Positions 54,500-57,814 of a stretch of 64,000 nt of DNA are shown here, one piece after another. The stretch covers positions 202,864 to 266,863 of the forward strand of contig CAWDKS010000001.1 in the NCBI GenBank assembly GCA_963802965.1, in the 5' to 3' direction. A program made the translations under genes and the position numbers. This DNA comes from an uncultured Verrucomicrobiae bacterium. GTDB taxonomy: Bacteria > Verrucomicrobiota > Verrucomicrobiia > Limisphaerales > UBA11358. Every line of letters starts with the position of its first letter. Within the stretch, counting starts at the first letter, position 1. Below the pieces are notes generated by a model. It had not been told where the DNA came from. It saw only the letters and a list, made by a program, of their open reading frames with translations, and did no database searches.

Positions 54500-55561
54500 A
54501 TGGCTGGATTGATTGATCAAATTGAGCCTTTGAAACAAGCCGCGCTCACGGACTTGAAAGCCGCTCCCGACCTCGCCGCGCTCGAACAGGCCAAGGGCAA
54601 CTGGATTGGCGCGCACGGCAAATTCACCGCGCTGATGAAACAGCTCGGCACGCTGTCCAAGGAGGAAAAGCCCGCCGCCGGCAAGGCCATCAACGCCGCC
54701 AAAATCGAACTCGAAGCCGCGCTGGCCGGACGCCGCTCCGAACTCGAGCTGGCGGCCGCGTTGCCCAAGGAACCGACCGATTTCACGTTGCCCGGACGCC
54801 GTCGTGCGCTCGGCAAACTGCATCCGCTCACGCAGGTGACCGAGGACATCGTCCGCGCCTTCCGCAAGCTCGGCTTTGCCGTCGCCGACGGCCCGGAAAT
54901 CGAGGACGAATACCATTGCTTCGACGCCCTCAACACCCCCGCCGACCATCCCGCCCGCGACACCCAGGACACGTTCTATCTTGCCAATAACGCGCCGAAT
55001 GTTTCTCCCTCTCCTGGGGGAGAGGGCCGGGGTGAGGGCGGTCATAAACCACTCTTGCTCCGCACCCACACATCGTCAGTGCAGATCCGGGTAATGAAAT
55101 CGCAACCTCCACCCATTCGCATCATCGTGCCGGGCCGCGTGTATCGCCGCGACAACGCCGACGCGACGCACAACCCGACCTTCGAGCAGATCGAAGGGCT
55201 TTACGTGGACAAAAACGTCACCGTCGGCGATTTGAAGGGCACGGTGGAATTTGTCTTCAAGGAATTGCTCGGCGAGGAGACGAAGATCCGTTTTCGTCCG
55301 CACTATTTCAGCTACACCGAGCCGAGCTTCGAGATTGATTTCAGCAACGCGCTGGTGAAGAAGCTGGGCAAGGACTGGCTGGAAATTGCGGGTTGCGGCA
55401 TGGTGCATCCGCAGGTGTTTGAAAACGTCGGCTACGACCCCGACATCTGGACCGGCTGGGCGTTCGGTTTCGGCATCGAACGCATCGCCATGATTCGTTA
55501 CGGCATCAACGACATCCGCCTCTTTTACGAAAACGACGTGCGGTTCTTGGAACAATTTTGA
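54500..55561 (+). CDS. pheS: Phenylalanine--tRNA ligase alpha subunit, with in-frame repeat insert
   Basis: HPLTQV, ADHPARDTQDTFYL, LLRTHTSSVQIR, RIIVPGRVYRRD, FRPHYFSYTEPS, GCGMVHP and the tail [21 protein letters not shown]. About 20 extra residues lie between DTFYL and LLRTHTS. Confidence 0.93.
   Translation: MAGLIDQIEPLKQAALTDLKAAPDLAALEQAKGNWIGAHGKFTALMKQLGTLSKEEKPAAGKAINAAKIELEAALAGRRSELELAAALPKEPTDFTLPGRRRALGKLHPLTQVTEDIVRAFRKLGFAVADGPEIEDEYHCFDALNTPADHPARDTQDTFYLANNAPNVSPSPGGEGRGEGGHKPLLLRTHTSSVQIRVMKSQPPPIRIIVPGRVYRRDNADATHNPTFEQIEGLYVDKNVTVGDLKGTVEFVFKELLGEETKIRFRPHYFSYTEPSFEIDFSNALVKKLGKDWLEIAGCGMVHPQVFENVGYDPDIWTGWAFGFGIERIAMIRYGINDIRLFYENDVRFLEQF
55004..55041. repeat. Half-copy of the 2101-2257 element (right arm) inside pheS
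   Basis: TCTCCCTCTCCTGGGGGAGAGGGCCGGGGTGAGGGCGG compared with CTCCCTCTCCTGGAGGAGAGGGCCGGGGTGAGGGCGG at 2221-2257. It is translated as SPSPGGEGRGEGG. Confidence 0.8.
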
Positions 55562-55563
55562 CG

Positions 55564-56100
55564 ATGCAGAACGAACTCGACATCGTTCGCGACGTTTCGA
55601 AACGGCTGGACGCTGCGGGCATCGGCTACATGCTCACCGGTTCGATGGCGATGAACTATTTTGCCCAGCCGCGCATGACCCGCGACATTGATGTCGTTGT
55701 TGAGTTGCAACCCGGTGATGCTGGGCGCGTGGTGAAATTGTTCAGTCCGGACTACTACGTTTCACGCGAGGCGGTGGACAGTTCCATCGCGCACCAATCA
55801 CTGTTCAACCTCATCCACAACGAAAGCATCATCAAAGTGGATTGCATCGTCCGCAAGCAGAGTGAATACCGCCTCAACGAATTTAATCGCCGGCAACGCA
55901 TCAAAATTCAGGATTTTGAGATGTGGATCGTCAGCAAGGAAGACCTGATTCTCTCCAAACTTTTTTGGGCAAAGGATTCCCGCTCGGAAGTGCAGCTCAG
56001 CGACGTGAAGAACCTCATTGGCACCGGCTGCGACCGCGCCTACATCGAACGTTGGACGGCGGAACTGGGTTTGACTAACTTGTGGAAGGAAATCGTATGA
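55564..56100 (+). CDS. Minimal nucleotidyltransferase-fold protein (cassette 1, gene 1)
   Basis: It carries an NTase signature, G-S-x13-D-x-D, in LTGSMAMNYFAQPRMTRDIDVVV. It is 178 aa and its ATG lies 2 nt after the pheS stop. Confidence 0.75.
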   Translation: MQNELDIVRDVSKRLDAAGIGYMLTGSMAMNYFAQPRMTRDIDVVVELQPGDAGRVVKLFSPDYYVSREAVDSSIAHQSLFNLIHNESIIKVDCIVRKQSEYRLNEFNRRQRIKIQDFEMWIVSKEDLILSKLFWAKDSRSEVQLSDVKNLIGTGCDRAYIERWTAELGLTNLWKEIV

Positions 56101-56300
56101 CTGACACCTCGCCGGAAATCACCGAACTCGTCCGGCAAAAGCTGATGACGCGCTCCGCCGAGGAACGCTTCCTGATGGGCGTGCGCATGTTCGACGCGGC
56201 GCGCGCCATGGCGCTCGCCTCGCTGCCCGCCGGGCTTTCAGCGGAGGAATTGAGACGCCAGCTTTTCCAACGGCTCTATGGACAACCGCTGCCATCTTGA
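56097..56300 (+). CDS. Small helical partner protein (cassette 1, gene 2)
   Basis: [43 protein letters not shown]... An ATGA overlap with the NTase stop indicates translational coupling. Confidence 0.6.
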
Positions 56301-56303
56301 AAC

Positions 56304-56379
56304 CGCCATGCTCCGTTACGGCATCAACGACATCCGCCTCTTCTACGAAAACGACGTGCGGTTCTTGAAACAGTTTTAA
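56304..56379 (+). repeat. Copy B of the pheS 3' end (76 nt, 6 mismatches to 55486-55561)
   Basis: It encodes (A)[23 protein letters not shown]. It has its own ATG at 56308, and its TAA overlaps the ATG of the next gene (TAATG). Confidence 0.9.
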
Positions 56380-56990
56380 TGGCGAAGGAAATTAAAATTT
56401 ACGAATCCGCTGTGCCGATTTCCGGCGAGGAAGTCGAACACGCAATTCTTTTAATTCGCGGGCAAAAAGTGATGCTTGACCGCGACCTCGCCCGGCTTTA
56501 CGGCGTGCAGACCAAAATTCTAAACAAAGCGGTCAGCCGCAACCTCGACCGGTTCCCTGCCGATTTCATGTTCCAATTGACCCCGGAAGAACAAGATTCT
56601 TTAAGGTTCCAATTTGGAACCTTAAAGCGCGGGCAACATTCCAAGTATCTGCCGTTCGTCTTCACGCAGGAAGGCGTCGCCATGCTTTCGGGCGTGCTGC
56701 GCAGTCCGCGTGCGGTGCAGGTCAACGTCGCCATCATGCGCGCCTTCGTGCGACTGCGCGAAACGCTGTCGTTGCACAAGGAACTGGCGCACAAGCTCGC
56801 CGACCTGGAACGCAAGATTGAAAACCACGACGAAAACATCCGCAGCCTGTTTGACGCCATTCGCCATTTGATGACGCCGCCGGAAACGCCGCGCCGCGAA
56901 ATCGGCTTCCACGTCAAGGAAGACAGCGTGCCGTATCGGGTGAAAACCAGAAAACCCGTAAAAGCTCCGCTAGGAGCGAAATCTTTGTAA
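56379..56990 (+). CDS. ORF6N-domain (KilA-N-related) DNA-binding protein (cassette 2)
   Basis: LLIRGQKVMLDRDLARLYGVQTKILNKAVSRNLDRFPADFMFQLTPEE is the ORF6N signature. The last 9 codons (KAPLGAKSL*) lie inside a MITE-like element. Confidence 0.85.
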   Translation: MAKEIKIYESAVPISGEEVEHAILLIRGQKVMLDRDLARLYGVQTKILNKAVSRNLDRFPADFMFQLTPEEQDSLRFQFGTLKRGQHSKYLPFVFTQEGVAMLSGVLRSPRAVQVNVAIMRAFVRLRETLSLHKELAHKLADLERKIENHDENIRSLFDAIRHLMTPPETPRREIGFHVKEDSVPYRVKTRKPVKAPLGAKSL

Positions 56991-57150
56991 CAACGAAACC
57001 AGATAAATTTTTAAGCTCCGTCAGGAGCGACATCGAAAACAAATGAACAACGCCGGTCAAAAAATTGTGGTTGGCGAAATATGCCGCCCCGATGGGGCTT
57101 GGCGGATTGGTGGCGTGCTGACTACAAAGATGCCGCTCCTAGCGGAGCTT
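56962..57150. repeat. MITE-like element with AAGCTCCGCTAGGAGCG...CGCTCCTAGCGGAGCTT termini
   Basis: The 17-bp terminal inverted repeats are perfect. An internal third copy, AAGCTCCGTCAGGAGCG, lies at 57013. The left end supplies the ORF6N stop and the right end abuts pheS-tail copy C. Confidence 0.8.
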
Positions 57151-57152
57151 GG

Positions 57153-57213
57153 CGGCATCAACGACATCCGCCTTTTCTACGAAAACGACGCGCGGTTTTT
57201 GAAACAGTTTTAA
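57153..57213 (+). repeat. Copy C of the pheS 3' end (61 nt, 3 mismatches to copy B)
   Basis: It encodes [19 protein letters not shown]. It shares GAAACAGTTTTAA with copy B, whereas the resident end reads GGAACAATTTTGA. Confidence 0.9.
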
Positions 57214-57226
57214 GTCAAATATTTTT

Positions 57227-57814
57227 ATGAGTGAAGACAAAAAAAACGAATGTGGGACTTCATTTGCGAAAGCGCTTCGCACTCTAACAAATAATATGGA
57301 TGGTTTGCGTGAATTCGTAACCACCGTGGAATCGTATTTGAAGGAACGACAAATGAAAATTGTCGAAAAGAATGCATCGAATTTAACCCCGTTCTATCTG
57401 GCGATGCGCAAGCTTAAACCCGAAGACTTCCCGACCGCGAAACTTTCAGATGAAGAGGTTGCAAAACGGTTCAAGGGTAATATTTCGATAAATGTCAAAG
57501 ACGAAGGGGACGGGAAAAAAACTGCGCAAATCAAAATTTCAGGGGAAGGTGAAAAGGATTTTGATCGTGCTATGGCAGAATTGCGCAAAGCTGAAGACAT
57601 GTCTGCAAAAAGCCAGCGGTTTCAGCTTGGCTGGTTAGCCCTGTGTGAAAAATTTGATGAATTATTCCCTCTTTTGCCAAAGGTGATTAAGAGCAAACAA
57701 CTCTCTCGGGAAGAACTTCGTGACTTCCCAATTTTTGAAGAAGTTCGGAAAGACAAACGCTGTAATAAATTTCTTCCAAAAGAACTTGAGAAGGTAAAGC
57801 AAATTGAAAAATGA
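57227..57814 (+). CDS. Hypothetical protein, low-GC orphan (cassette 3)
   Basis: A 195-aa Lys/Glu-rich ORF, roughly 40% GC against about 60% in the flanks. Its stop overlaps the pheT ATG (ATGA). I recognise no family. Confidence 0.55.
   Translation: MSEDKKNECGTSFAKALRTLTNNMDGLREFVTTVESYLKERQMKIVEKNASNLTPFYLAMRKLKPEDFPTAKLSDEEVAKRFKGNISINVKDEGDGKKTAQIKISGEGEKDFDRAMAELRKAEDMSAKSQRFQLGWLALCEKFDELFPLLPKVIKSKQLSREELRDFPIFEEVRKDKRCNKFLPKELEKVKQIEK

Follow-up and report, generated by a model that had tools for sequence, protein, structure and literature searches.

Gene cassettes bounded by displaced pheS ends between pheS and pheT in Limisphaerales-type Verrucomicrobia

Introduction

Insertion with long target duplication was reportedly described in 2000, by Nobusato et al. 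In such insertions, restriction-modification genes without mobility genes are flanked by repeats of more than 30 bp that often lie across a start or stop codon; most cases come from naturally competent species, and the mechanism is not known (Furuta, Abe and Kobayashi 2010, PMC2853133). Here we analyze a related arrangement in a stretch of 64,000 nucleotides (nt) from a Limisphaerales-type Verrucomicrobium of soil or peat (assembly GCA_963802965.1, contig CAWDKS010000001.1, positions 202,864 to 266,863), hereafter the window. Between its pheS and pheT genes, which encode the alpha and beta subunits of phenylalanine-tRNA ligase, small gene cassettes alternate with copies of the 3' end of pheS, called tails below. 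As in insertion with long target duplication, repeats of variable length, here 51-111 nt, flank the inserts, the empty target site is seen in relatives (10 junctions, including that of locus L081; L-numbers denote the pheS loci of relatives and added context loci), no transposase or integrase was found beside the inserts in a search of limited sensitivity, and the target gene is left intact while operon-like structures are entered. Where the earlier cases are single events with near-identical repeats, however, insertion here is serial, with up to four tails that represent diverged alleles. The cargo, too, differs from restriction-modification, being mostly toxin-antitoxin-like or miscellaneous and even including glutathione peroxidase, and one cassette family appears at three target genes, with the arrangement spread across an order of Verrucomicrobia.

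Minimal mobile elements, a second point of comparison, are said to go back to Saunders and Snyder in 2002 and Snyder et al. in 2007. The pheS-pheT pair is their classic, first-described site in Neisseria, where homologous recombination in the flanks exchanges cassettes (PMC3082526). The same gene pair is involved here, varied whole-gene cassettes that include restriction-modification systems likewise sit between conserved genes, and one pair of loci, L015 and L126, shows breakpoints inside the tail and the pheT head. In Neisseria, though, one cassette replaces another and no repeats are left, whereas here cassettes accumulate and duplicated gene ends remain; the crossover zones here are the last or first ~20-30 codons of the flanking genes.

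Integrons are recognized by an IntI-type tyrosine recombinase with its attI site and by attC sites, imperfect palindromes that fold as single strands. Like integron arrays and clusters of attC sites lacking integrases (CALINs), the arrays described here are ordered series of small, co-oriented and mostly promoterless cassettes with a 60-110-nt repeat between them and presumed expression from upstream, and toxin-antitoxin cassettes are frequent; unlike in integrons, no IntI was found, and the repeat is a coding gene end without an attC-like hairpin that differs from one host gene to another. Accretion of integrative and conjugative, integrative and mobilizable, and cis-mobilizable elements at fda and similar sites, like that of islands at tRNA and tmRNA genes, depends on a recombinase of the tyrosine or serine type that recognizes a single att site, and at least some of the arrays contain the cognate enzyme. 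Here, similarly, each successive element is bounded by direct repeats of a 3' end, and a complete gene end is restored, but no recombinase was found in 160 loci, there are multiple targets without a common att core, and the units measure 0.5-1 kb.

The Pseudomonas aeruginosa defence hotspot cDHS1, with a median size of 26 kb, lies beside pheS-pheT; in the part of its description that we draw on, defence genes gather next to pheST between fixed core genes and do not belong to one type of mobile element, as in the arrays studied here (PMC10250203). The insertions here lie inside the operon rather than beside it, and gene-end repeats are not reported in that part of the description of cDHS1 (PMC10250203). 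A preliminary description of the window, made from its sequence alone, proposed an undescribed hotspot of cassette accretion. The class as such is known (PMC2853133, PMC3082526), and a defence hotspot beside pheST has been described in Pseudomonas (PMC10250203). New features are the serial use of one operon junction, toxin-antitoxin-like and miscellaneous cargo, start-to-stop precision at three targets, mirror-image use of pheT, and divergence between repeat alleles, which implies that spread took place through conserved gene ends by homologous recombination.

Results and Discussion

An array inside the pheST operon

All genes of the array lie on the forward strand, in the order pheS, four open reading frames (ORFs) of 178, 67, 203 and 195 codons, and pheT. 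The working pheS gene (54500-55561; Pfam tRNA-synt_2d, E 1.5e-97; TIGR00468, E 5e-104) ends in tail A, its final 24 codons and stop (55486-55561). Repeat search and alignment place two displaced copies of this 3' end downstream: tail B (56304-56379, encoding 24 residues) and the shorter tail C (57153-57213, 19 residues), of a class that starts at GGCATCAACGAC. Counted from our alignment, tails A and B differ at 6 of 76 nt and tails B and C at 3 of 61, exactly as the preliminary description gave them; the repeat search matches A (55486-55559) to B (56304-56377) at 93%, with homology to C beginning at 57153. A 37-nt core of the tail has three exact matches in the window against none expected from 100 shuffles, and no other gene end is repeated within these 64 kb.

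Tails A and B enclose cassette 1, a pair of genes encoding 178 residues (55564-56100) and 67 residues (56097-56300), the TGA of the second forming the cassette end. Tail B is followed by cassette 2, which encodes an ORF6N-domain protein of 203 residues (56379-56990), and by a palindromic composite of ~190 nt (56956-57152, not assigned to a strand) that reaches tail C. Cargo 3 (57227-57814, 195 residues from the first ATG) then leads directly into pheT (57811-60405, located by tblastn). The cassettes are small, read in the same direction as pheS and are closely fitted into the operon. The ATG of cassette 1 (55564) stands 2 nt beyond the pheS TGA (55559-55561), the two genes of cassette 1 overlap by ATGA (56097-56100), the TAA of tail B overlaps the ATG of the ORF6N gene (TAATG, 56377-56381), and the TGA of cargo 3 overlaps the ATG of pheT (ATGA, 57811-57814); the stop-start contacts on which the preliminary description had built its picture of a translationally chained array are all present. 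A terminator-like hairpin lies upstream of pheS, after rplT (54299-54328, forward strand), and no such site was found on this strand between pheS and pheT, both by consensus scan only.

The cargos differ in how well they can be named. Cassette 2 had been called ORF6N/KilA-N-type, and the ORF6N assignment is firm (Pfam, E 8.4e-32). Cassette 1 had been called a minimal nucleotidyltransferase with a coupled 67-residue protein. The gene pair holds, the smaller gene accompanying the larger in every context examined, while the enzymatic label is weak: the DUF6036 match (E 3.4e-4, 20.9 bits) falls under the 23.6-bit cut-off, and an AbiEii-like nucleotidyltransferase match is likewise sub-threshold (E 2.9e-3). 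With a faint match of the 67-residue protein to the Rv0078B antitoxin (E 0.015), this ATGA-overlapping pair of small genes is a toxin-antitoxin candidate for which all toxin and antitoxin domain matches remain sub-threshold. Cargo 3 is, as first proposed, a low-GC near-orphan: its GC content is ~36-45% in surroundings of ~55-65%, it has four matches among 5.8 billion proteins, and no homologue was found in the other 160 loci. A public annotation starts it at 57353, giving 153 residues, and exact-sequence look-ups of the window pheS, ORF6N and cargo 3 proteins returned no match, as the public gene calls start elsewhere.

Recurrence in related genomes

Scanning one genome per species yielded 80 pheS loci whose products are 82-92% identical to that of the window, and a metagenome scan returned 80 more, so that window pheS is 82-94% identical in amino acid sequence to 160 Limisphaerales-type loci. 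The first 80 come from Limisphaerales or Pedosphaera-type Verrucomicrobia represented by metagenome-assembled genomes (MAGs), or from bins with doubtful taxon labels. Dereplication left 144 distinct loci, 112 of them informative. Extra pheS tails occur in 32 of these 112: one in 27 loci, two in three and three in two. Among the 76 intervals closed by pheT, ten are empty (1-53 nt), the longest reaches ~5.9 kb, and the closest relative found, L081 (94% identical), has an empty site. L115 was rejected as a further empty site, as it contains a decayed pheT head fragment.

Before dereplication, 89 closed intervals contained 185 ORFs in ~96 cargo clusters, 142 of the 185 ORFs lying on the pheS strand. 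The cargo includes PIN/VapBC and MazE-like pairs, DNA methylases with XhoI or XcyI nucleases, and Mrr, GmrSD, Abi_alpha, HEPN and ORF6N proteins, along with housekeeping-type genes for carbonic anhydrase, PAP2, phosphodiesterase and methyltransferases. This site is rich in direct repeats of 40-200 nt: 89 of the 121 found in 2 Mb lie from the pheS tail downstream; the remainder are mostly internal to large repeat proteins, the exception being the mnmA case described below. Empty sites and alternative cargos at the same junction bear out the proposal of a cassette-accretion hotspot.

The window and all relatives were assembled from metagenomes, and a conserved tail repeat could confuse assemblers, with strain variants joined chimerically at the pheS tail. 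Several observations oppose this. Each junction between a cassette end and a partial tail is a unique sequence that must exist in reads, and the same junction, TGA-AACCGCCATG after the 67-residue gene, is found in independent samples and assemblies (window tail B, L055, L175, L190). Arrays stand on contigs of 1.2 and 1.5 Mb (L175 and L023), and decayed tails with frameshifts and internal deletions occur among the loci. Assembly artefact is the least credible of the explanations considered here and can be taken as effectively excluded; nor do the relatives carry one fixed array, another outcome that the preliminary description had set against its proposal.

Some loci show further peculiarities. 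VapBC-type cassettes open with a conserved GGATTCC-N12-TTGACAGGATTCC just past the tail stop TAG (L001, L004, L017, L026, L030, L032, L046, L078, L185). This is a direct repeat around a -35-like hexamer and probably a promoter or operator of the cassette, which suggests that some cassettes carry their own promoter. The operon is split at the array in some genomes. In L185-L188 an array precedes pheT without pheS; that of L185 reads VapBC, tail, nucleotidyltransferase-like cassette, palindromic composite, tail, XhoI restriction-modification, pheT. Conversely, ~20 loci have pheS without pheT within 8-10 kb (e.g. L025, L028, L034, L038, L040, L042, L048, L064, L074). MAGs with Limisphaerales-type pheS but labelled, for example, Bifidobacterium, Limnocylindrales, Methylomirabilota or Haliangiales (L003, L025, L033, L043, L044, L059, L061, L073 and others) are probably mis-binned contigs or carry wrong taxon labels.

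Tail boundaries and tail alleles

Secondary tails terminate at the stop codon, homology ending 1-7 nt past the last sense codon in almost every case. Their left ends vary. In about 18 of 43 tails the left end lies no more than a few nucleotides from the same Met codon (-69 to -76), next to several unrelated cassette families; one class begins at GGCATCAACGAC (-51 to -58), usually preceded by the palindromic composite; and the left ends of others fall between -78 and -106. Each cassette family has its own left junction, as the TGA-AACCGCCATG junction illustrates, which suggests that the travelling unit is a cassette plus its junction to the next tail.

Of 43 tails, 38 keep an in-register stop and 34 have an open frame with an in-frame ATG. 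Tail B is such a mini-ORF (in-frame ATGs at 56278 and 56309), and short-class tails take their in-frame ATG from an ORF beginning in the palindromic composite. The next ORF starts no more than 14 nt from the tail stop in 20 of 34 cases, a spacing that resembles the 1-16 nt between pheS and pheT at empty sites. This anatomy suggests that tail mini-ORFs may relay translation to pheT.

The sequence of the tails speaks to their origin. Local tandem duplication of the pheS 3' end, with later decay of the copies and insertion of unrelated sequence between them, would account for direct repeats in tandem orientation. The copies differ, however, mostly at synonymous sites or by variants known from working pheS genes. 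Compared with the working tail of the same locus, 141 of 216 differences (65%) fall at third codon positions, and the codon changes comprise 123 synonymous and 66 nonsynonymous ones, 22 of the latter being variants found in working pheS genes. Local duplication and decay would yield far more replacements, so most of the divergence dates from a time when both copies were working gene ends in separate lineages, in line with the view of the preliminary description that the extra tails are imported alleles. In the window, all six differences between tails B and A are synonymous or are amino acid variants known from working genes, and it is the LEQF ending of tail A that is rare in relatives, where LKQF or LRQF is commonest. 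Pairs of repeats range from no differences (L119) through three (L023, L053, L066) upward; in most pairs the differences lie at synonymous sites, in keeping with the import of one copy or with exchange at a later time.

Local duplication is also hard to reconcile with the presence of the same cassette-plus-junction units in different genomes and at different array positions, or with cassettes that are more alike than the pheS genes beside them. For cassette 1, identity between the window and L046 is 89.7%, against 80.6% for pheS, a disparity that points to transfer. We consider local duplication effectively excluded, only marginally more credible than the artefact of assembly.

The block of cassette 1, tail B, ORF6N gene, palindromic composite and tail C in the window matches L046 from its second to its third tail, apart from two internal deletions; an ORF6N remnant lies at the corresponding place in L046. 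Cassette blocks thus appear to move or persist together. The preliminary description had inferred two integration events into an older arrangement; with the block shared, that count becomes uncertain for the window genome, where the block may have arrived or been inherited as one.

The same signature at other genes

The family of the first gene of cassette 1 has 6577 homologues, the best 120 being 82-100% identical. Nine members were viewed in context: six follow pheS or a pheS tail (the window included), two follow ilvD, and one follows moxR, where it splits the moxR-DUF58 pair. Behind the cassette, the 3' end of the respective host gene is duplicated up to its stop codon, over 111 nt for ilvD (L161, 3879-3989 and 4758-4868, 86% identity) and 67 nt for moxR (L181, 2925-2991 and 3750-3816, 91%). 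In all contexts, and thus at three unrelated target genes, the cassette starts 2-12 nt past the host stop and ends at its own TGA. A different cargo shows the pattern at mnmA, the last 51-71 nt of which, to the stop, are copied after a glutathione peroxidase gene (L014, 1958-2695; L021, 508-1251; L030, 4151-4874); this cargo is an ordinary metabolic gene. Over pheS, pheT, ilvD, moxR and mnmA the repeats are 51-111 nt long.

The preliminary description had likened the array to site-specific integration at the pheS tail in the manner of tRNA and tmRNA genes. The occurrence of cassette 1 after ilvD and moxR, with their own unrelated ends, excludes recombination at a pheS-specific att site, and the mnmA tails and mirror-image pheT heads speak against that model as well.

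Search for a recombinase and for att features

No recombinase-like ORF was found in the window, in agreement with the preliminary description, and none within 8-10 kb of any of the 160 loci. The search covered 10,985 ORFs in 2.03 Mb, with single-sequence hidden Markov models and five queries (XerD, lambda Int, Cre, IntI1 and gamma-delta resolvase); at this limited sensitivity no match was obtained (E <= 1). Nor does a recombinase family occur among the 25 commonest of the 51 Pfam families of 90 cargo representatives. Cassette 1 takes up the whole interval from tail A to tail B (55562-56303) with coding sequence, which leaves no room for arm sites. Compared with shuffled sequence, neither strand of the tail shows an attC-like fold (z = +1.2 for both), and the DNA pattern of the tail is missing from 2.9 million IMG/VR viral contigs, so that no phage or plasmid attP was found.

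Xer-dependent pdif modules and IMEX, for comparison, have 28-bp dif-like flanking sites composed of two 11-bp arms and a 6-bp spacer. Inspection of the tails by eye revealed no dif-like palindrome.

These results bear on the main rival to the route favoured below, a dedicated enzyme acting in trans and encoded elsewhere in the genome, such as a tyrosine or serine recombinase, an Xer-like host system, a long-stagger transposase, or a Cas1/casposase-like integrase. It would cut at the stop boundary and 50-110 nt upstream, duplicating the interval much as a CRISPR repeat is duplicated on spacer addition. Precise cassette ends in three target genes, the clustering of left tail boundaries at about -73 to -76 and about -57, and compact, co-oriented, recombinase-free units reminiscent of integron cassettes or pdif modules are what such an enzyme might produce. 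Besides the lack of any such gene within 8-10 kb, of an attC-like fold and of the tail pattern in viral contigs, it is opposed by the range of targets, at least five (pheS tail, pheT head, and ilvD, moxR and mnmA tails) with no common motif by eye, by duplication lengths that vary from 51 to 111 nt, and by repeat copies that are diverged alleles and not identical fill-in products. We regard such a trans-acting enzyme as unlikely.

Probable recombination within gene ends and a mirror image at pheT

Most pairs of loci that are at least 99% identical derive from the same sample or have the same array, and among near-identical pairs differing by one cassette L015 and L126 alone are informative. 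They match at 98% over pheS, a cargo gene and the greater part of a decayed tail, which diverges over its final ~25 nt. Next, a 765-nt cassette in L126 stands in the place of 50 nt in L015, and likeness resumes at about the third codon of pheT. A double crossover, with one arm in the tail and the other in the pheT head, would leave such breakpoints. No single crossover point could be assigned, since VapBC-type and nucleotidyltransferase-like cassettes follow tails with various endings over the last 20 nt.

The arrangement is mirrored at pheT in 14 distinct loci, where a second copy of its first 18-30 codons, beginning with the ATG, precedes the working gene. Most often the insert is a class II aldolase-like gene in reverse orientation, after which a promoter-like TTGACT-N17-TTTAAC stands directly before working pheT. 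The innermost fragments of tail and head adjoin each other in L001, like the remains of an original empty junction.

The pheT inserts also weigh on a conceivable RNA route, in which a cassette mRNA would be reverse-transcribed with a template switch onto a host mRNA fragment ending at the stop codon, produced for instance by ribosome-dependent cleavage, and the resulting cDNA of gene tail plus cassette would integrate by homology. Start-to-stop boundaries, a right edge fixed at the stop and a variable left edge would all follow from this speculative scheme. A reverse-oriented gene with promoter-like sequence is unlike a single sense transcript, however; restriction-modification cassettes are several kilobases long, and a reverse transcriptase was not seen near any locus. 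Such a route seems to us improbable.

A proposed route for cassette gain and its implications

Any account has to start from the observed anatomy of the array, its recurrence, the turnover of cargo, the imported tail alleles, the multiple target genes and the lack of a nearby recombinase. The most likely route, in which we place slightly better than even confidence, is host recombination or repair: insertion with long target duplication, then shuffling by homologous recombination. The molecular steps of insertion proposed here are read from sequence comparison. The pheS-pheT junction would act as a hotspot at which promoter-poor cassettes are added serially inside the operon. Each addition would occur at the extreme end of pheS, or elsewhere at the extreme start of pheT, with the incoming DNA bringing a complete gene end; the old end would be displaced downstream (upstream for pheT) as a direct repeat of 51-110 nt stopping exactly at the stop or start codon.

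Two layers may be distinguished. Founding insertions with long target duplication would arise at tight operon junctions via host replication or repair, and selection would retain only products that leave both essential flanking genes whole; this, we propose, explains why a stop or start codon is included in every repeat. Cassettes would subsequently spread between lineages and shift within arrays by homologous recombination, the near-invariant pheS tail and pheT head serving as portable homology arms. Double crossovers would exchange cassettes, and single-crossover or "ends-in" events would add one together with another tail. The displaced tails, mostly open with a start and an in-register stop, may meanwhile keep translation running on to pheT.

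Certain features do not sit easily with host recombination or repair. Start-to-stop precision of cassettes at three unrelated targets is hard to obtain from random illegitimate joining plus selection. The ~18 of 43 tails that start near the same Met codon, in unrelated cassette families, hint at a defined rule for cuts or junctions, although selection for a start codon could also yield the clustering. Homology arms of 51-110 nt are short for RecA-dependent single crossovers. An enzyme supplied in trans, unlikely as we judge it, also counts here.

A broader proposal, again an unlikely one in our estimation, is that these arrays represent a general cassette system without an element-encoded recombinase, in which a mechanism that recognizes the limits of coding sequence would place start-to-stop modules at tight junctions within operons. 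It might work through an intermediate defined by RNA or the ribosome, or through a trans-acting integrase whose staggered cuts lie 50-110 nt apart. If so, the ends of essential genes would be portable attachment sites and translational relays, and the arrays an integron-like gene-capture platform of a new mechanistic class.

The earlier report of insertion with long target duplication drew on a few single events; here the signature is abundant, serial and found at five gene ends. With extra pheS tails in 32 of 112 informative loci, five gene ends and one cassette family represented by thousands of near-identical copies in public metagenomes, there are enough natural replicates to work out junction rules and to choose an experimental model. 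Toxin-antitoxin-like and restriction-modification genes can evidently lodge inside an essential, translationally coupled operon, a placement that would make them hard to lose. Gene flow between species can use conserved gene ends as common landing sites, with no need for mobile-element machinery, which bears on how defence hotspots form. Annotation is affected as well, since short "pheS-like" ORFs in these arrays are footprints and not genes.

Palindromic elements and other repeats

The element between the ORF6N gene and tail C, described at first as a miniature inverted-repeat transposable element (MITE), measures ~190 nt, with 28-nt terminal inverted repeats (56962-56989 and 57123-57150) and a strong fold as one long hairpin (z = -6.6). 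It contains three GCTCC-N4-GGAGC hairpin units, resembling repetitive extragenic palindromes (REPs), and abuts tail C; we refer to it as a REP composite. Matches by blastn, full-length or partial, occur in 19 of the first 80 loci, all within the pheS-pheT interval and none elsewhere in the 21-kb flanks. Loci with the composite include L001, L006, L007, L011, L020, L022, L023, L035, L044, L046, L050 and L185. It mostly adjoins a pheS tail starting at GGCATCAACGAC, and its ORF runs in frame into that tail; in the window this ORF has 56 codons (57043-57213, forward strand), and the same arrangement is present in L001, L006, L007, L011, L105, L119 and L133.

A perfect 29-nt palindrome, CTTTAAGGTTCCAAATTGGAACCTTAAAG, lies within the ORF6N gene at 56599-56627. 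Near-copies follow pheS tails directly in L011 and L021 and a nucleotidyltransferase-like cassette in L046, and are probably the remains of deleted ORF6N cassettes.

A REP-like palindrome of ~50 nt, TCTCCCTCTCCTGGGGGAGAGGGCCGGGGTGAGGGCGG, is inserted in frame inside pheS itself (54992-55041), adding SPSPGGEGRGEGG to the protein, and has a second copy at 2208-2257. The insertion in pheS gives the sole Rfam match, to whalefall-1, at 25.1 bits and thus below the 37-bit cut-off. Lengths of the pheS match differ among relatives (e.g. L006, L105), which suggests further insertions at this position, and repeats similar to the pheS-internal one link pheS and pheT in L006, L018, L020, L024 and L147. 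Unrelated to the pheS tails, four tandem 525-nt repeats with 61-93% identity occupy 23149-25023 of the window, in the region of a large ORF.

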